A stretch of DNA of 64,000 nt, taken from Candidatus Zambryskiibacteriota bacterium. GTDB taxonomy: Bacteria > Patescibacteriota > Minisyncoccia > Phycocordibacterales > WO2-35-19. The translations under genes were made by a program, and so were the position numbers. A model generated the notes under the pieces. It searched no databases. It was given only the letters and a program-made list of their open reading frames with translations, and was not told the origin of the DNA. The stretch spans positions 33,947-97,946 of the forward strand of contig CAWJAC010000006.1 in assembly GCA_963840745.1 (NCBI GenBank), read 5' to 3'. Positions 9,677-50,390 of this stretch are shown here, one piece after another (the stretch's first letter is position 1; each line of letters opens with the position of its first letter).

Positions 9677-10737
9677 ATGAATTTTTGGCAAAAAATGAAG
9701 AAACCCATTTTGTGTTTGGCGCCCATGGCCGATGTCACTGACGTGGCTTTTAGATTTATTATTGCTAAGTATTCGAAAGAATTGCAGAAGGTGCCCTTCT
9801 GCAATTATGTAACTTACACAGAATTTGTTTCGGCTGATGGGCTGGTGAGAGCGCCGGAGGCAGGTCGCAAGAAACTTTTGAAAGATTTGGAATATTCTGA
9901 AATTGAAAGACCTATTGTAGCTCAGTTTTTTACAAGCAAACCTGAAATGATGGAAAAGGCGGCGGCCTTGGCGGTTGAGCTTGGTTTTGACGGCATTGAT
10001 ATAAATATGGGCTGCCCAGATAAAAGTATTGAAAAGCAAAATGCCGGCGCGGCCTTAATGAAGAACTCTGAATTGGCTAGAGAAATAATTTTGGCGGCAA
10101 AACAGGGCGCCGGTAAATTACCGGTGTCGGTCAAGACTAGGGTTGGCTATAACAAAGATGAATTAGAAACATGGTTGCCAGAATTACTTGCTGAAAATCC
10201 GGCGGCGATAATTATTCATGCCCGCACTCGCAAAGAGATGTCTAAAGTGCCGGCTCAGTGGGCGCGCATAGCGCGGGCAGTTGAAATTCGTAATGATATA
10301 CAGAATTCAGAAAAATCAGAAAACATTGTTCCTGCGTCGGGTCTAAGGATAAGGCTCTTGAAACAATATTTTCTGATTTTTCTTTTCGAACTTTAATAAT
10401 AGGAAACGGTGATGTTGAAAATGTTGAAGATGCGATTAAAAAATGCGAAGAGAGCGGAGCCGATGGGGCAATGCTTGGTAGAGCAGTTTTTGGCAACCCG
10501 TGGTTATTTGCGGATTATCAGCCTACACTCGAAGAAAGGATTAAAGTTCTGTTGGAACATACCAAAACTTTTGAAGAAAAATTCAGCGGAGTAAAAAGTT
10601 TTGCTATTATGAAAAAGCATTTCAAAGAGTATTTGAAAGATTCTAACCTGAGAGACTTGAGATTTAAGCTCATGAAAGCCGAAAATTCTAAAGAAGTTGA
10701 GGAAATAATTTCAAATTTTGGGTTTCCAACTGAGTAG
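9677..10737 (+). CDS. dus: tRNA-dihydrouridine synthase, reading frame broken by an 80-nt hairpin insert
   Basis: ILCLAPMADVTD, GIDINMGCP, VKTRVG in ORF 9677-10396. IIGNGDVENVEDA...GADGAMLGRAVFGNPWLF is in a different frame (open from 10285). Removing 10310-10389 joins them in frame. Confidence 0.85.
10310..10382. other. Hairpin element copy 1: 21-bp stem (10310-10330 / 10362-10382) with a 31-nt conserved loop
   Basis: Arms gaaaaatcagaaaacattgtt / aacaatattttctgatttttc are complementary except one C/A, which is a G-U on the minus strand. The loop contains ctgcgtcgggtctaaggataaggctcttga. Confidence 0.75.
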
Positions 10738-11428: not shown

Positions 11429-12161
11429 ATGGAAGGCATTATGCGCTGCAGCAGGTATTCATTTGGACCCAACCGCCTTCATTATTGCGGACCGGATGCC
11501 AATAGGGAACTGCGGGAACTCATAGAAAAAGACGGAGATAATTTTGGCCTCTCACATATTCTCAAACAATTTAAAACTCTTTTTCCTTACCTGCGTTATA
11601 TTGCTCACATAAATAATATAAAAGATCCTTTTAACAGTAGGGTAGTCGAGGCTTATTGGCTCGGCAATGATCTTTTGGAAAAAGTGGAACAAAGGACTCT
11701 TTTTGATTTTTTGATTGATGATTTGAAAGTTAAAGATAAACTTAGAAGCAAAGAATTCAATTGGCTGGAGGAAAAAATAAAAAATGGAGCAGTGCCTCAC
11801 CATTCATTTCATGTTTTAAATATCTGGCAGCAAGCCGGTCATAACGATTTGCTCGACGATCTAGTGAGGATGGATGAATGCCGGATTTCTTCAGGCATGG
11901 TGACTGAAGTGAAAGGACCTGAAATTAATGTATCAACAGAACCACTGGTTTATACGAATGGTAAATTTGCTTTGGGTGCTCGCCATTTCAAAAACTTTGA
12001 TTCGCCAATTAGAATCTGAGTACGATATCGAGCAAATCAAACCCGGGCAAATCGTATCCATCCACTGGAGCGTGCCGTGTGAAGTCATCACTCTCGCTCA
12101 AGCCTCGACTCTCCGCAAATATACTCTCCAAAACATCGCCTTCGCCAATCTCACTGTTTAA
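11429..12161 (+). CDS. Conserved hypothetical protein (DUF6390-like), one frame change near 11975-11985
   Basis: MRCSRYSFGPNRLHYCGPD...VVEAYWLGNDLL in ORF 11429-12019. It continues as ISKTLIRQLESEYDIEQIKPGQIVSIHWSVPCEVIT in ORF 11928-2161's frame (ORF 11928-12161). Family name given from memory. Confidence 0.5.
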
Positions 12162-21659: not shown

Positions 21660-22969
21660 CTATTTCCACTTTACCTTAAGAAAATGCGAAGCGCAAGACA
21701 TACAGGGGTCGTAAGCACGGATTAATTTTTCCATTTCAAAAGTAGATTTTATTTTTGTCCTCAACATATTCTGGTTTTTCTATCAAACTCTGAACCAAAA
21801 CACCAATATCTCTTTCTATATTTATTTGATTTTGACCGGTCGGCACCACCACTTCGCCTTCTTTGATTTTACCATTGCTTCCCAAAACAATTTTGTGATA
21901 AAGAGTGCCGCGCGGCGCTTCCACTACGCCTATTCCAACCGCATTTTTCTTGGCCTCGCCTTTTATAATATCTTCGTGTACAAATTTATTATTTGAAAGA
22001 ATATCAATCGATTCATCTACGCTGTGCAATATTTCAATGGCTTGAGCTAAGTTGTTGTAATAAATGTCTGTTGACGGAAAAAGTTTGAGAGATTCGGCGG
22101 CTGATTCCTTTGTTTTGGCATGCAATTTGTCTTTTGTAAATTGAGTACGAGCCAAAGCTGCCCACCATATATCCTTCACCTTCGTATGTATAGCCCATAG
22201 CTTCGGAATAAGGTATGACGGTGTTTTCCAAATGAAAGCGGAAATCTTTTTCTTCTATTTTTTTCCCATCACTTGCTTCAATAATACCTTGTATATATCC
22301 AAAAGAATTTTCCGGCACTAGGGCGATATATTTGGTCTTGCGGTCAAAATGGTTGGGTGCGTTTTTAAAAATTTCTATAAGTCTCAAGACTGCCGGCCTT
22401 ATATTTTGCAATTTACTAATCGCTTCATTTACACCGGTCTTGATCGGGGAAATGCAAAAAGCCGCCTATGACAGGGTTGGTGGCATGAACGCTTCCGCCC
22501 GGCAATAAGGGTTGCCAGGAAGTTGCCGGCAGACTTGGTGTCAAAGCCGTCATGAAGGAGCTGGTGCTCTACCGGATTATTTTCGTCGAAATCAAGAAAA
22601 GCATCTTTGCCAAAAATATCTGGCATGGAAAATAAATATAAGTGCAGAGCATGATCACGAATCATAAGCCCGTGCATAACCAGAGTTCGCAGGAGCATTG
22701 TTTGCGGAGAAGGAGTGATATTAAGCGCATTTTCACAAGCTTCTATACTGCACATGATGTGGGCGTTGGAGCAGGTGCCGCAAATGCGCGCCAGGTGGGC
22801 GGGGAATGGCGGCGATATCTTTGCCTTTCATGGCCTCAGTAAAAAATCTTTTGTATTCAGTGATGGCAAATTTAACGTCAGTCACTTTGCCGTCAACCAC
22901 TTTCAAATTGAGGGTGGCGTTGCCCTCGATTTTGGTTATATGTTCAAGCGATAAATCAAATGTGTGCAT
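21660..22969 (-). pseudogene. [NiFe]-hydrogenase large subunit, eroded (at least five frame changes)
   Basis: N-terminal ITKIEGNATLNLKVVDGKV. RICGTCSNAH motif (read from the underlying sequence) in a second frame, beginning just upstream of ORF 22429-22755 and ending at that ORF's M. Then SVHATNPVIGGF, LARTQFTKDKL...VEAPRGTLYH, and the C-terminal DPCMSCASH, each in a different frame. Frames of the pieces run 1,0,x,1,0,2. Confidence 0.8.
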
Positions 22970-23475: not shown

Positions 23476-24144
23476 TTAATCAAGAGTGTCAAAGGTTCCC
23501 TTTGACACTATCCTTTTATATAATTTTGTGTTTTCATTTATGAAATTTTTGGTGCCCCCAAATATTTCGGTTAGAAATTGTTTGTGAACTATATGGTTTT
23601 TTCTATCAAAAATAAAATCATTATAACTGCTCCATTTGTATTCTTGCGGTTCATTCACAACTTTATCTTTTACTGGGTTCATATGAATATAGGAAGAGAT
23701 GAGCATCAATTGCGGATCAGTTTTTATTGGTACAGCTTTGAAAGCATCTTGAAAAACATGCCCAACTCTTTTGTGTTTTAGGTTTATGTATTTGGAGAAA
23801 CTGGTAAATACTTTTAATACAAGTTTTGAAATTGATTCCTCCCCACATTGTTCTATTAAAAGATGTATGTGATTTGGCATTAAACAGAAAGCATGTAATT
23901 TAAAACTTTTTGATTCTAAACTTTCTATTCTTATCCTTGATTTGGGGGATTTGGTTATTTCACTTTTATTTAAATCTCCTTTTTCAATCCCAAGACCCAA
24001 CCCTAATCTGAAAAGGAAAGCTCGATAGTCCTGTTCATCGCGGAATATGATCTCCTTGTTATTCCCACGGTTATAAAGATGATATATAGAACCTTTGGCA
24101 AAGTTTTTATAATCTCTGTTTCCCATACCATAGTTATACCACAA
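23476..24144 (-). CDS. IS200-like Y1 transposase of the REP-associated (RAYT) type
   Basis: FCLMPNHIHLLIE (HUH motif) and SSYIHMNPVK (catalytic Tyr region). Flanked on both sides by the same hairpin. Confidence 0.8.
   Translation of the reverse strand: MWYNYGMGNRDYKNFAKGSIYHLYNRGNNKEIIFRDEQDYRAFLFRLGLGLGIEKGDLNKSEITKSPKSRIRIESLESKSFKLHAFCLMPNHIHLLIEQCGEESISKLVLKVFTSFSKYINLKHKRVGHVFQDAFKAVPIKTDPQLMLISSYIHMNPVKDKVVNEPQEYKWSSYNDFIFDRKNHIVHKQFLTEIFGGTKNFINENTKLYKRIVSKGTFDTLD
23485..23509. repeat. REP hairpin, left of RAYT: agtgtcaaagg ttc cctttgacact
   Basis: Perfect 11-bp arms. Overlaps the RAYT stop region (codes VSKGTFDTL). Confidence 0.85.
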
Positions 24145-24150
24145 ATAGAA

Positions 24151-24172
24151 GTGTCAAAGGTTCCCTTTGACA
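24151..24172. repeat. REP hairpin, right of RAYT: gtgtcaaagg ttc cctttgacat
   Basis: Same core as 23485-23509; 9-10 bp arms. Confidence 0.85.
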
Positions 24173-24229
24173 TCTTTCGGTTATAGCAAATCTTGTGCTT
24201 GGGCGCACAGTTAGTGTTATAATAATTTT

Positions 24230-26467: not shown

Positions 26468-28470
26468 AAAAATTTTTTAATCCTAAATCGGTCGCAGTTA
26501 TCGGAGCAAGTTCTGATAAAAATAAAGTTGGCTTTGCTTTGATGGCGAATCTGCTTGCCGGCAAGAAGAGGGAAATTTATCCTATTACTCTGGGCGAAAA
26601 AGAAATACTCGGCATTCCTGCTTTTGTCTCGGTTTTAGATGTATCTGAAAAAATTGATTTGGCTATTATTGCCGTCCGGGCCGATATTGTGCCTCAAGTG
26701 TTGTCCGACTGTGGTAAAAAGGAAATACCAAATATCATTGTTGTCTCGTCAGGTTTTAAAGAAATAGGTCCGGCAGGCAAAAAGCTTGAAAATCAAATTG
26801 CAGCCATAGCCAAGCAAAACAACATGACAATTTTAGGGCCAAATTGTCTTGGAGTTATTGATACAAAAAATGATTTGAATGCCTCCTTTTCTCCGCAAAA
26901 ACCACTTGCCGGAAAAATCGCTCTTTTGTCTCAATCGGGCGCTTTGGGCACGGCAATGCTCGACTGGGCTATCGGCGAAGGGGTCGGTTTTTCAAAATTT
27001 GTAAGTTTGGGCAATGAGGCACAGCTGACAGAAATAGATTTCCTTAAGTTTTTGAAAGATGACGACGATACGGATTCCATTTTAATTTATTTGGAAAAAG
27101 TTAGCGATGGTCCGGAATTAATGCGTCTTTTAAAATCAATAACACCAAAAAAGCCGGTTGTCATACTCAAAGCCGGAGTGAGCGATTATGGAGCTTCTGC
27201 CATTATGTCCCACACTGGCTCTTTAGCGCCGGAATCCAGAGTTTTTACTGCTGCTTGTCAGCAAGCCGGTGCCATTATGGTGCCTTCGCTCCGCAAGTTT
27301 TTTAATATTTCCAAACTCTTATCACTTGGAGTCAAGGTAAACGCGCCCATTTCGCGCCTCATAGTTTTGACCAATGGAGGCGGACCATCCGTCATTGCTG
27401 CCGATGAGATCGGACTTTCCCGTTCCTTGTCTTTGGTTTCAATTCATGAAGATGTCAAAGAGAAATTAAGAGGGGTTCTACCGAGCATGGCGGCGGTCGG
27501 CAATCCTGTCGATATAATAGGCGATGCCTTGGCGGAACGATACGAAAAGGCTCTCGATATTTTATGCGGTGTCAAAGATGCAGACGGCATTATCGTAATG
27601 CTCACTCCGCAAATGATGACCGAGGCGGAAGCGACGGCTCATTTGCTTTCAAAATATAAAAATAAGAAAAAAATATTTCCAGTATTTATTGGCGGTCCAT
27701 CTATACAAGCTGGCCGTAGTGACTTGCTGCAGTCTGGCCTTGTTAATTTTGCTTTTTCAAAAGATGTGGTTTATGGGTTGGACAGCTTGGCAAACTATGC
27801 TCCAAAAATTTTGCTGTCAAAGACGGCCTTTGTCTTTGACAGTGTCTCTCAGATGCCATTTGAAGATATGACTAAAATTTTAGGTGAATATAATATTTCA
27901 ATAAAAGGAAAATTCATAAACAGAAAAGAAGATTTAGAAAACGCTCTCAGAGAATGCGGAGAAGGTCCTTATGCTATGAAAGCCATATCAAATAATATAG
28001 TTCACAAAATTGATGTTGGTGCTGTCAAGTTAAATATTTCAAATTTGGAAGAAGCTAATGTTGTTTGGGAAGAAATGTGGCAAAAATTTGTGCAGCTGGA
28101 TGGCATATTGATTCAAAAAATGGCTGAGGGCAAGGAAGTTATAATTGGTATGAAAAGAGATGCAACATTTGGCCCAACAATTCTTTTTGGTTTGGGTGGC
28201 ATTTTGGCAGAAGCTATAAAGGATACCGCTTTGCGAATTGCTCCTATAGAAAAAGAAGAAGCCTTTAAAATGATGCAAGAAATAAAAGGCATCAAAATAT
28301 TACAAGGTATGCGTGGCGAGCCGCCCGTAAATTTTGATTTGCTTGCTGATATTATCATAAATCTCTCTCGCCTCGCTCTTGACCATCCCGAAATAAAAGA
28401 AATAGACCTCAATCCCGTCATAGCCGCCGAATCTTCTGCGGCTATTGTTGATGTTAGATTAATGATTTAA
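26455..28470 (+). CDS. ADP-forming acetyl-CoA synthetase (fused alpha/beta; CoA-binding plus ATP-grasp)
   Basis: 671 aa. FNPKSVAVIGAS, SQSGALG, HTGSLA, then the C-terminal ATP-grasp part. Confidence 0.8.
   Translation: MENLEKFFNPKSVAVIGASSDKNKVGFALMANLLAGKKREIYPITLGEKEILGIPAFVSVLDVSEKIDLAIIAVRADIVPQVLSDCGKKEIPNIIVVSSGFKEIGPAGKKLENQIAAIAKQNNMTILGPNCLGVIDTKNDLNASFSPQKPLAGKIALLSQSGALGTAMLDWAIGEGVGFSKFVSLGNEAQLTEIDFLKFLKDDDDTDSILIYLEKVSDGPELMRLLKSITPKKPVVILKAGVSDYGASAIMSHTGSLAPESRVFTAACQQAGAIMVPSLRKFFNISKLLSLGVKVNAPISRLIVLTNGGGPSVIAADEIGLSRSLSLVSIHEDVKEKLRGVLPSMAAVGNPVDIIGDALAERYEKALDILCGVKDADGIIVMLTPQMMTEAEATAHLLSKYKNKKKIFPVFIGGPSIQAGRSDLLQSGLVNFAFSKDVVYGLDSLANYAPKILLSKTAFVFDSVSQMPFEDMTKILGEYNISIKGKFINRKEDLENALRECGEGPYAMKAISNNIVHKIDVGAVKLNISNLEEANVVWEEMWQKFVQLDGILIQKMAEGKEVIIGMKRDATFGPTILFGLGGILAEAIKDTALRIAPIEKEEAFKMMQEIKGIKILQGMRGEPPVNFDLLADIIINLSRLALDHPEIKEIDLNPVIAAESSAAIVDVRLMI
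27814..27842. repeat. REP-like palindrome inside the acetyl-CoA synthetase ORF: ctgtcaaagac ggccttt gtctttgacag
   Basis: Perfect 11-bp arms. Core TGTCAAAG shared with the RAYT-flanking REPs. Translated in frame as LSKTAFVFDS. Confidence 0.75.
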
Positions 28471-48464: not shown

Positions 48465-50390
48465 TCACAATAAATTATTGGGGTCTACTTTTAGTTCAAA
48501 GTGGGGAGGGAGAGATTTTAAAATTGCTAGCAAATTTTGATCTACCCATTTTTCTTTAGGCAATTTTATGACAGCATTAACGGCTGATTGCTCACCTCGT
48601 TTTTCGTGAGTAGAGGGAAAGATAGCTGGGTTGTAATCTTTAAAAATATTTTTTAAATTTTCAGATTCTTTAGCCACGAAATTTCTAGTACCCCTGACTG
48701 TTATTTTTATAAAAATACCGAATGGCGGATAGCCCAAAACTTCTCGGTCCTCTATTTCTTTTTTATAAAATTCTATAAGGTTGCCACTTACAGCAAATTC
48801 CACAGTAGGATCATTTGGATTGCGAGTTTGTATTAAAAAATTTTCTTTGGCTATATTTTTGGTCTGTACAATTAGGCGAAATATTTTTTCTCTGATGCAA
48901 AAGTCTGGGATAGAGAAAAGGGAATCAAAAGAAGCTATAGCAGTAGTCGCCACTTTTTTTCGGAGGAATGAGAAAGCCATTTCAGTGCCCAAAAGCACTC
49001 CGCCTCTGTTTTCATAAAACTTTTCCGCAGTGGCAGATGCTTTAGTATCGGTTGGAGTGATGTCTTTGTGGATTTCAAAAAGATTTATGTTTGGAATGCT
49101 TTTCCTTATCTCATCAGCTACTCGGTCTAGCCCCGCGCCAAAGGCCGCCAGTTTCCAGCTGCCGCAATTTTGGCAGACCTCGGCTGCATCGCGCATCTCT
49201 CCGCATTGATGGCATTTAAAAGCGCCACCGTCCCTTGTCTTATATAAAATCATAGGCGACGAGCAGTTGTTGCATTTGACTTGCTCGCCGCAATCGCGGC
49301 AGACAGTGACAGAAGAGAGACCTTTCCTAGCGGCAAAAATAAACATATTAGAGCTTTTTTCCGTGTTTTCTTTTATCATATTCAGCAATTCCGGAGATAA
49401 AGTTTTAAATTCTTTTCCTTGCCCTGAACTTGTCGAAGGGTCTTTCTTGCTTGATTCTCTCAAATCCACTACCTCTGTTTTAACTTCAGACGGCAGTCTC
49501 CATTTGACGCTTTCAAACTCTCCGACTTCTCCTTGTTTGTATCTATACAAAGTTTCTGTTCGGAGGAATGAATCCCCAATTACTGCGCGTATATTTTTTT
49601 TGTTCGCCAAAATCTCGGCAAAAAATCGCAGATCCATGAACGGCCGTGATAAAGTTTTCCAACCGTTTTCATTTTCTTTGTCTATAATCACAGTGCCAAA
49701 ATCATTTCTTGGCAAAAATAGCCATTTAGCGGTGGCGATGACGAGTATCGGATGCGGAGTCAAACAAGCTTTTTTCCATTCCTCTTTCAGTTCTTTTTTG
49801 TTCATTTCATTATGGAAAGAGCAGACGAATAATTCTATGCCGCGTTCCAAGTTTTCTTTGATGAGTTTGACGTCTTCATTTTGCGGCAGGCAGAGAAAGA
49901 CCGATCTTTTTTTAGCAAACTCTTCTCTGATAAGCGATCTGTAGAGAGACAGTCTTTCTTCGTCCGGAGCCTGAAGCACAGTCACTTCGTTTTTGGTGTT
50001 GTCAAAGACGGTCTTTGACAGTTGTCCCGAAAAGACTGTCTTTGACAACACGCTTGGATTTTCCAAAACAAAAGAAGGAATTAATTGGGACAAAACGCTT
50101 CCTTGGTTGGTAGCAAAATATTCTGCCGTTTCTTTGACTACCTCCAAAAATTCTTTTTGCAAAAATGGTTTGGCTGTGACGGCTGAAATTTTTTTGAGCT
50201 GGAAATCGGCTGACTTTATTTCAGATTTTGCTTCTGTGACATCTCGGCTCTCTAAAACCAGTGCTGATACTGCTTTGCTTCTAATATTTATTTTGACGAG
50301 AGAACCTGGTTCCAAATATTTTGGTCCGAAGTAGGAGAGTGATTCCTTATTCAACCCCTTTGAAAATGGGAGACATTCGATAATAAACAT
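48465..50390 (-). CDS. priA: Primosomal protein N' (PriA helicase)
   Basis: 641 aa. Cys-rich zinc region CRDCGEQVKCNNCSSPM...CHQCG...CQNCGS and helicase-like core. Confidence 0.8.
   Translation of the reverse strand: MFIIECLPFSKGLNKESLSYFGPKYLEPGSLVKINIRSKAVSALVLESRDVTEAKSEIKSADFQLKKISAVTAKPFLQKEFLEVVKETAEYFATNQGSVLSQLIPSFVLENPSVLSKTVFSGQLSKTVFDNTKNEVTVLQAPDEERLSLYRSLIREEFAKKRSVFLCLPQNEDVKLIKENLERGIELFVCSFHNEMNKKELKEEWKKACLTPHPILVIATAKWLFLPRNDFGTVIIDKENENGWKTLSRPFMDLRFFAEILANKKNIRAVIGDSFLRTETLYRYKQGEVGEFESVKWRLPSEVKTEVVDLRESSKKDPSTSSGQGKEFKTLSPELLNMIKENTEKSSNMFIFAARKGLSSVTVCRDCGEQVKCNNCSSPMILYKTRDGGAFKCHQCGEMRDAAEVCQNCGSWKLAAFGAGLDRVADEIRKSIPNINLFEIHKDITPTDTKASATAEKFYENRGGVLLGTEMAFSFLRKKVATTAIASFDSLFSIPDFCIREKIFRLIVQTKNIAKENFLIQTRNPNDPTVEFAVSGNLIEFYKKEIEDREVLGYPPFGIFIKITVRGTRNFVAKESENLKNIFKDYNPAIFPSTHEKRGEQSAVNAVIKLPKEKWVDQNLLAILKSLPPHFELKVDPNNLL
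49996..50051. repeat. Nested REP-like palindromes inside priA
   Basis: gtgttgtcaaagac (49996-50009) pairs perfectly with gtctttgacaacac (50038-50051). Inner tgtcaaagac / gtctttgaca at 50000-50020. Translated as LSKTVFSGQLSKTVFDNT. Confidence 0.75.

Follow-up and report, generated by a model that had tools for sequence, protein, structure and literature searches.

A RAYT-like Y1 transposase gene bracketed by matching hairpins in a Zambryskibacteria-like genome: a probable REPtron-type system in Patescibacteria

The present analysis concerns a stretch of 64,000 nucleotides from a Candidatus Zambryskiibacteriota genome (contig CAWJAC010000006.1, positions 33,947 to 97,946; hereafter the window) and, within it, a gene for a HUH/Y1 transposase with a palindrome at either end. 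We propose, with a probability of about 70%, that gene and palindromes form a REPtron-type system in a Zambryskibacteria-like genome of the Patescibacteria, also known as the candidate phyla radiation (CPR). Such a system would consist of a single-copy, largely vertically inherited class-2 Y1 HUH enzyme, resembling the tyrosine transposases associated with repetitive extragenic palindromes (RAYTs and REPs, respectively), and of two bracketing cognate hairpins, which the enzyme disperses. The cognate hairpin is a perfect palindrome of 21-25 nt with the core TGTCAAAG-N5-CTTTGACA. The elements on which this proposal is built are the following.

23476 to 24126, minus strand: RAYT-like (class 2 TnpA-Y1) HUH/Y1 gene, 216 aa from the ATG at 24126
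23486 to 23508 (stem extends to 23485-23509), no strand assigned: downstream flanking hairpin GTGTCAAAGG-TTC-CCTTTGACAC, inside the last codons of the Y1 gene
24151 to 24173, no strand assigned: upstream flanking hairpin GTGTCAAAGG-TTC-CCTTTGACAT, ending 25 nt before the ATG

REP/RAYT systems provide the most familiar example of the apparent domestication of a transposase jointly with its miniature repeats. Descriptions of such systems come, to our knowledge, almost entirely from Proteobacteria, Cyanobacteria and Bacteroidetes, and our literature search found no paper linking RAYTs or REPs to CPR bacteria. The present findings add a whole clade of gene-hairpin pairs in Patescibacteria, and related pairs with other hairpins in further CPR lineages and in two metagenome-assembled genomes (MAGs) of DPANN archaea. 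The interest of the system lies mainly in this extension to CPR and DPANN, in the intragenic life style of the repeats, and in the replacement of host sequence by hairpins of equal length.

The Y1 protein groups with RAYTs

Besides the 216-aa form, the open reading frame (ORF) has a longer form of 222 aa (23476 to 24144, minus strand) from an alternative TTG start at 24144. The ATG at 24126 is likely to be the true start; a database protein of 216 aa that is 100% identical to the Y1 protein (P0001, encoded on a 174-kb MAG contig) starts at the same ATG. The preliminary description of this DNA had presented the gene as an IS200-like HUH/Y1 gene with the motifs HIHLLIE and YIHMNP and, at the same time, as being of the RAYT type. 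The motifs are indeed present (NHIHLLIE and YIHMNP), and so is the Y1_Tnp domain of Pfam (E = 1.8e-10). The IS200 likeness did not hold, since the NCBIfam model for IS200 (NF033573) scored only 17 bits (E = 0.005) against a cut-off of 55 bits. The RAYT assignment was upheld by the REP_Tyr_transpos model, which scored 67.3 bits (E = 1.3e-18; equivalog cut-off 80 bits). REP_Tyr_transpos was also the best NCBIfam family for all 16 of 16 diverse family members, and these behaved alike towards the IS200 model. Some proteins of the family already carry the label 'REP element-mobilizing transposase RayT' from the automatic annotation of the JGI.

Comparisons with known structures pointed in the same direction. 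When a profile of the family was searched against PDB sequences, the sole match was TnpA-REP of Escherichia coli (4ER8); a PDB search with the single Y1 sequence gave only a weak signal (E = 0.2). An AlphaFold model of the protein (pLDDT 85.6) retrieved 4ER8 first in Foldseek (E = 1e-4, TMt 0.61), followed by the TnpA structures of IS608, ISDra2 and IS200. Across 54 family sequences H86, H88 and Y146 are invariant; within the tyrosine motif YIHMNP, H148 and N150 are invariant as well, and I147, M149 and P151 are at least 90% conserved. The arrangement Y---NP has been described as the signature of class 2 (RAYT-like), whereas Y---Q is that of IS200 (Quentin et al. 2018, PMC6006769). The finer motifs of the family are NH[IFL]H, FQD, YIHMNP and KWSSY. 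No C-terminal helix-turn-helix (HTH) family was detected in the protein by Pfam at E ≤ 1, and no TnpB/OrfB was found among the 14 large window ORFs that were scanned, all of which belong to housekeeping families. The protein is thus RAYT-like and groups with RAYT/TnpA-REP rather than with TnpA of IS200/IS605. An IS200/IS605 element with a TnpB was rejected as an identification on the grounds that the scores favour RAYT, that no TnpB was seen among these ORFs, and that the gene is single-copy and syntenic.

Matching hairpins bracket the gene in the window and in its relatives

The preliminary description had noted the same palindrome at both ends of the gene, with one copy overlapping the stop region. 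Both statements were confirmed, the coordinates being refined to those listed above. The consensus for the two flanks is GTGTCAAAGG-TTC-CCTTTGACA[C/T], or TGTCAAAGG-TTC-CCTTTGACA without the end base. The sequence GTGTCAAAGGTTCCCTTTGACAC is exact at 23486-23508 and has one mismatch, in its last base, at 24151-24173; the flank palindrome gave 0 matches in 100 dinucleotide shuffles. Folded as single-stranded DNA, the two flanks reach -10.6 and -8.8 kcal/mol (z = -6.2 and -4.7), and their loops have the identical orientation on the plus strand. The downstream hairpin lies within the last 11 codons of the gene, where it encodes VSKGTFDT ahead of the stop codon at 23476-23478, and the upstream hairpin occupies the divergent intergenic region between the Y1 gene and the neighbouring gene for pyruvate:ferredoxin oxidoreductase (POR). 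A search of the hairpins against Rfam returned nothing meaningful.

This arrangement is widely conserved. About 1000 homologues of the Y1 protein were found, almost all of them in Patescibacteria (Zambryskibacteria, Nomurabacteria, Paceibacterota), and about 35 species-level genomes share the bracketing, with one hairpin 9-47 nt (mostly 9-30) upstream of the start and a second at the 3' end, which overlaps the end of the gene or directly follows it. Judging from the position of the arm relative to the stop codon, the right arm CTTTGACA would supply the TGA stop in many loci. An alignment of 64 flanking hairpins follows the pattern [A/G]TGTCAAAG...CTTTGACA[T/C] and shows clear structural covariation: 89.5% of the cells are paired, and compensatory changes occur in 9 of the 11 pairs. 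The observed values were reached in 0 of 500 shuffles, and slid controls gave 32-56% paired cells. The hairpins also co-vary with the gene they accompany, in that the rare, lineage-specific stem variants TGTCAAGG, TACCAAAGG, ACTCAAAGG and ACAAAGGG are each found on both flanks of one locus.

At 33-45% identity, remoter homologues from further CPR lineages, from a Nanoarchaeota MAG and from a Woesearchaeota MAG are bracketed by perfect hairpins of their own that are quite different, such as TACTGTACAAGGTT, TGTCCAACAC and ATTGCAAGGTC (compared loci, which are contig stretches from related genomes and metagenomes designated by L-numbers: L042, L045, L046, L049, L056, L057, L063, L066-L068, L070 and L071). 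No bracketing hairpins were seen at the homologues outside the CPR, namely those in a Bacillus isolate and in MAGs labelled Clostridia or Gammaproteobacteria.

Copy number and synteny

Counts of the Y1 gene in the 64-kb window and in the individual loci gave one copy for the window and one for each of the close loci. In about 22 loci of the Nomurabacteria type, each representing a species, the gene has the same neighbours, including gyrA downstream, and four Zambryskibacteria loci have the order DUF192, Y1 gene, RRM in common. In the window the gene lies, as originally described, between hydrogenase and oxidoreductase genes: it is bordered by the small subunit of a NiFe-hydrogenase (Oxidored_q6) and, in the other direction, by POR alpha and POR beta, which are followed by an ADP-forming acetyl-CoA synthetase. 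The same context was found again in the relative L207, the Y1 protein of which is 79% identical. The gene is therefore largely vertically inherited and housekeeping-like, a pattern that has been described for RAYTs by Bertels et al. (2017). The synteny is not absolute, as there are at least four contexts among close Zambryskibacteria relatives. The neighbours of the L003 gene (DUF192, RRM and others) are not present in the window, which hence offers no empty ancestral site.

Some of these contexts show rearrangements of their own. In L005 the neighbours are the same as in L003, L008 and L010 (DUF192, RRM, S1 and so on), and the Y1 gene is inverted relative to these loci, which suggests an inversion between the flanking palindromes. 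Extra genes enclosed by additional copies of this hairpin adjoin the Y1 gene in L207 (8860-9977, a 340-aa ORF), L005 (10620-11294, a 213-aa ORF) and L019 (10608-11214, a SAM methyltransferase). The 340-aa ORF of L207 has no Pfam match and is absent from the window at the corresponding locus. These extra genes look like hairpin-delimited cassettes.

A single Y1 gene between two hairpins could also be read as an autonomous IS200-like insertion sequence, the hairpins serving as recognition structures of the left and right ends and a unit of about 690 bp being transposed. Size and layout are those of IS200, the unit occupies the different contexts described above and is inverted between the same neighbours in L005, and the fold matches to the TnpA proteins of IS608 and ISDra2 are only slightly weaker than that to 4ER8. 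An insertion sequence is nevertheless difficult to reconcile with the single-copy state of the gene, in the window as in all close loci, with synteny over about 22 species, and with ends that are both the same perfect palindrome. The tyrosine motif is Y---NP rather than Y---Q, the IS200 model remained far below its cut-off, no tnpB was found among the large window ORFs scanned, and about 90% of the hairpins among the metagenome matches listed (see below) have no Y1 gene beside them. We therefore regard this explanation as quite unlikely.

Dispersal of the hairpin family

The hairpin family was searched with the motif TGTCAAAG-N5-CTTTGACA, which has 16 fixed bases. In the window and the related loci together (633 kb) there were 56 perfect sites, 7 with one mismatch and 16 with two mismatches, where 0, 0 and 0.15 were expected; sites with three mismatches numbered 9 against an expected 4.9, and the background was reached at four mismatches. 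About 22 of the hairpin copies are not gene flanks, and such extra copies occur in 17 loci. Ten of the 15 extra copies that were judged share the variant of the local gene, and a copy of the rare TACCAAAGG variant is located 9.5 kb from the gene in L027.

An unbiased sample of metagenome contigs was searched for the same 16 fixed bases and gave at least 120 stretches, with 132 hairpins among the matches listed. Only about 12 of these 132 flank a Y1 homologue and about 120 are not next to the gene, which corresponds to roughly 20 dispersed copies per gene copy. The view that the hairpin family extends away from the gene was thereby substantiated. Among the matches listed, the central 5 nt are mostly ACCGT (22), ATGCC (21), AGACA (17) or AGCCT (11), which are identical to the subtypes at gene flanks. 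Since a few recurrent loop subtypes are common to flanks and dispersed copies, the latter were copied rather than independently evolved.

These counts bear on two further explanations. The first is that the match between the flanks, and their likeness to the other palindromes of the window, are due to chance. Apart from the short length of the motif, nothing speaks for this, and with 0 matches in 100 shuffles, about 35 species with the arrangement and 56 perfect sites against 0 expected we consider the probability of a coincidence negligible. The second is that the palindrome is a functional DNA or RNA motif, such as an operator bound by a dimeric DNA-binding protein, an element of promoters or terminators, or an uptake-signal-like sequence, which accumulates by selection or biased recombination and merely regulates the Y1 gene. 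Several features would fit a motif of this kind. The right arm holds TTGACA, the upstream copy directly precedes -10-like boxes and start codons of the Y1 gene and of other genes, hairpin copies appeared terminator-like in a consensus scan, and the 16 conserved bases make up two half-sites around a variable centre of 5 nt. In addition, hairpins take the place of equally long host sequence in several genes, and the intragenic copies as a whole have a strong reading-frame bias; uptake sequences (USS/DUS) in coding DNA are known for such bias. However, gradual accumulation would leave many intermediates, whereas the mismatch spectrum is bimodal (56 perfect sites, 7 with one mismatch, and background by three to four). 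The few discrete subtypes of the centre, common to flanks and dispersed copies, indicate copying, the stems covary with pairing kept, and at about one per 30-60 kb the hairpins are much sparser than uptake sequences. Moreover, the perfect hairpins at the distant CPR and DPANN homologues are of quite another kind, which implies that the link is one between gene and hairpin and not one with a single motif. A functional motif of this type thus appears unlikely, and a gradual mutational, uptake-sequence-like origin of the intragenic hairpins is disfavoured by the bimodal spectrum and the discrete loop subtypes.

One group of matches stands apart. In contigs of higher GC content (41-53%), the palindrome with an AGCCT/AGGCT loop always has the context GRQRGLMR-LSKSLFDN-V.WALS.C, and no Y1 gene was seen in its vicinity (L088, L113, L121, L131, L147, L163, L177, L182, L198 and L200). 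This palindrome may belong to another organism as a conserved element of its own, outside the present hairpin family.

In-frame hairpins inside host genes

Exactly half of the 132 hairpins among the matches listed, namely 66, are located deep inside ORFs of at least 150 aa. That about half of the surviving copies reside inside genes would be explained by genomes with almost no intergenic space. With respect to the reading frame, 60 of the 66 are read as xTG-TCA-AAG...TTT-GAC-A, which encodes [V/L/M]SK..FD., and six as CQ..LT. None is in the third frame, which contains TGA; only the two stop-free frames would be tolerated. Where intergenic DNA is almost nil, the repeats persist largely inside essential genes and in one reading frame. 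The host genes are often involved in replication and repair (PriA, LigA-like, TopA, UvrD-like, RecG-like, RecR-like, HolB-like and RNase H-like) and also include aminoacyl-tRNA synthetases; other than PriA and TopA, these genes were named by reading of the sequences.

The window itself has two palindromes of this kind.

27814 to 27842, plus strand: intragenic palindrome CTGTCAAAGAC-GGCCTTT-GTCTTTGACAG, in-frame in the gene for ADP-forming acetyl-CoA synthetase, encoding LSKTAFVFDS
49996 to 50051, minus strand: composite palindrome, in-frame in the PriA gene after the 3'BD domain, encoding VLSKTVFSGQLSKTVFDN

Neither of these two palindromes is extragenic, both being in-frame in coding sequence. 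The first is situated in the linker that joins the Ligase_CoA_2 domain to the ATP-grasp domain; this linker is hypervariable in an alignment of acetyl-CoA synthetase orthologues, only a few of which have hairpin-derived peptides. The second consists of one complete and one degenerate unit in inverted, REPIN-like arrangement and folds into a hairpin that exceeds 20 bp (-21.3 kcal/mol). The PriA linker varies in length among 79 orthologues, many of which have one to three hairpin-derived peptides and others none. These peptides are of various subtypes, such as LSKGTFWDRDSLKVPFDS, LSRGTLWGRGNSRVPLDS and LQLSKTVFDN, and a hairpin-free version reads LSVLKEEK. Altogether, the hairpins in the linkers of PriA, acetyl-CoA synthetase and DUF192 show presence/absence polymorphism. 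The PriA orthologue of the window (48465-50390, minus strand, 641 aa) has 3'BD as its sole Pfam match and no helicase-domain match at E ≤ 0.001; database sources call its orthologues primosomal protein N'.

The preliminary description had further regarded the Y1 gene as the source element of these two palindromes. Both do exist and share the TGTCAAAG/CTTTGACA outer stem with the gene flanks, but their inner stem is of another subtype, TGTCAAAGAC-N-GTCTTTGACA, which flanks the orthologous gene in L006, L023, L026 and L149. As this GAC-N-GTC subtype is unlike the gene's own flanks, the window copies are members of the family but not demonstrably products of the present gene variant, and a source can be inferred at the level of the family only. 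The two copies are probably older. The genome had also been called AT-rich, which applies only moderately, the GC content of the window being 40.6%. Overall, the earlier interpretation is partly supported.

Replacement of host codons without change of length

Several intragenic hairpins stand in place of host sequence without any change in length. In the anticodon-domain helix of a class-II aminoacyl-tRNA synthetase, E-MSKTVFDM-L corresponds to E-YARKIFES-L in the hairpin-free version, the exchange covering 24 nt. One-for-one replacement of codons was likewise observed in a reverse-transcriptase-like ORF and in a Mur-ligase-like ORF. The comparisons without length change are those of L094 (about 11640-11670) with L115, L019 and L195, of L089 with L176, and of L022 with L019. 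Hairpin-bearing and hairpin-free orthologues differ by one codon at a LeuRS-like site and by three codons at a TopA site. The native sequences that are replaced partly resemble the hairpin (CAAA...TTTGA). Furthermore, the same orthologous site can hold different loop subtypes or orientations depending on the contig, as is the case for L089, L090 and L140, and for L106, L132, L139 and L173.

Three readings of these replacements remain: insertion offset by a later deletion, overwriting in the manner of gene conversion or renewal in situ by the variant now in use, and accumulation of the motif by drive. The bimodal mismatch spectrum argues against an accumulation that is gradual. The overwriting reading can be taken a step further. 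Hairpins would then be written over coding DNA of equal length, by patch replacement or gene conversion at partly hairpin-like sites, and the same sites in replication, repair and translation genes would repeatedly be rewritten with the variant currently used by the Y1 enzyme. This would amount to a RAYT-linked, in-frame editing of proteins by [V/L/M]SKxxFD patches in ultra-compact CPR genomes. We put this forward as a tentative idea that is more doubtful than probable; if it is true, its range would be widened by the related gene-hairpin pairs of DPANN archaea. The differences between variants at orthologous sites and the equal-length overwrites provide a testable handle on the manner in which RAYTs move or renew their repeats.

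Relation to known systems and proposed mechanism

The closest known counterpart is the REPtron of E. coli (TnpA-REP/RayT/YafM, 4ER8; subclass 2.2 of Quentin et al., group 2 of Bertels et al.), which likewise combines a single-copy Y1 HUH gene with the Y---NP signature and a bracketing palindrome that is also present elsewhere in the genome. TnpA-REP is both the best sequence-profile match and the best fold match of the Y1 protein, yet the two are only about 15% identical. Other RAYT genes are on record with a REP that overlaps their 3' end (PMC3733652), and in-frame REPs are also already known. The present system differs from that of E. coli in that the hairpins are short perfect palindromes with loops of 1-5 nt and no GT[AG]G foot, which is read by E. 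coli TnpA-REP, in having tens rather than hundreds of copies, about half of them intragenic, and in that the host belongs to the Patescibacteria rather than to the Proteobacteria. It would thus be a REPtron type in a new phylum, with a non-canonical REP.

By motifs only, the protein resembles a different group, namely subclass 2.1 of Quentin et al. (2018), which equals RAYT group 1 of Bertels et al. (2017) and most of the TIRYTs of Di Nocera et al. (2013). This group is characterised by NHVH or NH[YF]H, W[EQ] or FQ, YIELNP or Y[IV]HLNP, an SS tail motif and a length of about 238 aa. The Y1 protein and its relatives share with it NH[YFI]H, FQ instead of W[EQ], Y[IV]H[LM]NP, the SS tail motif and a length of about 210-240 aa. 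The homologues in the Bacillus isolate and in the MAGs labelled Clostridia or Gammaproteobacteria (33-38% identity) show this motif pattern too; those of the Bacillus isolate and of a MAG labelled Gammaproteobacteria (34-38% identity) have NHLH or NHFH, FQG, YIHLNP and SSY. A low abundance of the flank motif is also common to both, flanking 16-mers of group 1 being present at about 12 per replicon (Bertels et al. 2017). Subclass 2.1 has been reported to have no REP-like hairpins and to have either a C-terminal HTH-like domain (Bac_DnaA_C/HTH_23/HTH_28) or terminal inverted repeats of the form GGGG[AT][CG]A[CG]. The present system, in contrast, has perfect flanking hairpins, no such terminal inverted repeats and no HTH by Pfam. 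By its motifs, the protein would therefore come from a large group (2.1/group 1) that had been regarded as being without cognate hairpins.

Other systems share some of the traits. The REPIN-RAYT systems of Pseudomonas (groups 2 and 3) also have a co-varying hairpin family for each gene, vertical inheritance and a single-copy gene, and some of the present hairpins form inverted doublets as REPINs do (window 49996-50051, L021, L117, L203 and PriA linkers). Here, however, most copies are singlets, the copy number is 10-20 times lower and many copies are intragenic. IS200, which is the tnpA-only type of IS200/IS605, is likewise a unit of about 700 bp in which a single Y1 gene lies between hairpins at both ends, and its transposase has the same fold, but it carries Y---Q, is present in multiple near-identical copies and has ends that differ from each other, whereas the Y1 unit has Y---NP, a single copy and the same ends. 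Lastly, intragenic REPs and Rickettsia palindromic elements are in-frame palindromic repeats inside genes as well, often in linkers, and genes of replication and repair hold many of the intragenic REPs (Di Nocera et al. 2013). Compared with these, the present units are much shorter (7-8 codons), one frame dominates by 10 to 1, and some units replace host codons one for one.

In the light of these similarities, we infer that the Y1 protein cleaves the hairpins and disperses them. If it acts as E. coli TnpA-REP and IS608 TnpA do, the enzyme would bind the hairpin in single-stranded DNA, for example in the lagging-strand template, and would cut and rejoin the DNA beside the hairpin by means of its HUH metal site and the catalytic tyrosine Y146 of YIHMNP. 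Hairpin units would in this way be copied or moved to new sites, singly or as inverted doublets, and copies that land inside genes would survive only in the two stop-free frames, overwhelmingly as [V/L/M]-S-K-x-x-F-D-x.

Several observations weigh against this interpretation. The Y1 protein is below the equivalog cut-off of REP_Tyr_transpos (67 versus 80 bits), and it looks like a member of subclass 2.1, for which Quentin et al. (PMC6006769) found no REPs. The aligned flanks contain no GTAG/GTGG foot (the GT[AG]G of canonical REPs), and the loops of the two flanks have the same orientation in about half of the loci and are inverted in the rest, which is unlike a fixed left-end/right-end or inverted-REP layout. 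The copy number is low, at about 20 per gene copy. In the window, the dispersed copies have the inner stem GAC..GTC as opposed to GG-TTC-CC at the gene's own flanks, and the length-neutral exchange of host sequence for hairpins is not predicted by simple insertion. The link between protein and hairpin is, finally, one drawn by analogy.

Elements beside the hairpins and neighbouring genes

A further element is located between the upstream hairpin and the start codon of the Y1 gene.

24133 to 24141, minus strand: extended -10-like box TGGTATAAC, 6 nt before the ATG, read from the sequence

This box is a possible promoter for a leaderless mRNA, and TGnTATAAT-like boxes also follow the upstream hairpin in L003, L005, L008 and L207. 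TGGTATAAC was not called in a scan for promoter consensus sequences, because the scan demands a -35 box at a distance of 16-18 nt. A sigma-70 promoter that uses the TTGACA of the right arm was considered and rejected, as TTGACA and the -10-like box are 13 nt apart in the window, in L003 and in L008, and the consensus scan was negative. In L008 the repeat unit exceeds the hairpin, since the hairpin together with TTTGGATGTGTGGTATAATTTT, in which an extended -10-like box is contained, is present on both sides of the gene (9952-9999 and 10643-10690). Dispersed hairpins are often found about 10 nt ahead of the start codons of other genes, with TTGACA in the right arm (L005 10620-10653 and 11274-11306), and co-option of such copies as promoters or terminators is conceivable.

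Next to the Y1 gene, the gene for the large subunit of the NiFe-hydrogenase (21666-22969, minus strand) is split over three reading frames. When the intact orthologue of 437 aa from L205 was compared with the window by tblastn, its pieces were recovered in frames -1, -2, -1 and -3. The gene is either a frameshifted pseudogene or the product of an assembly error.

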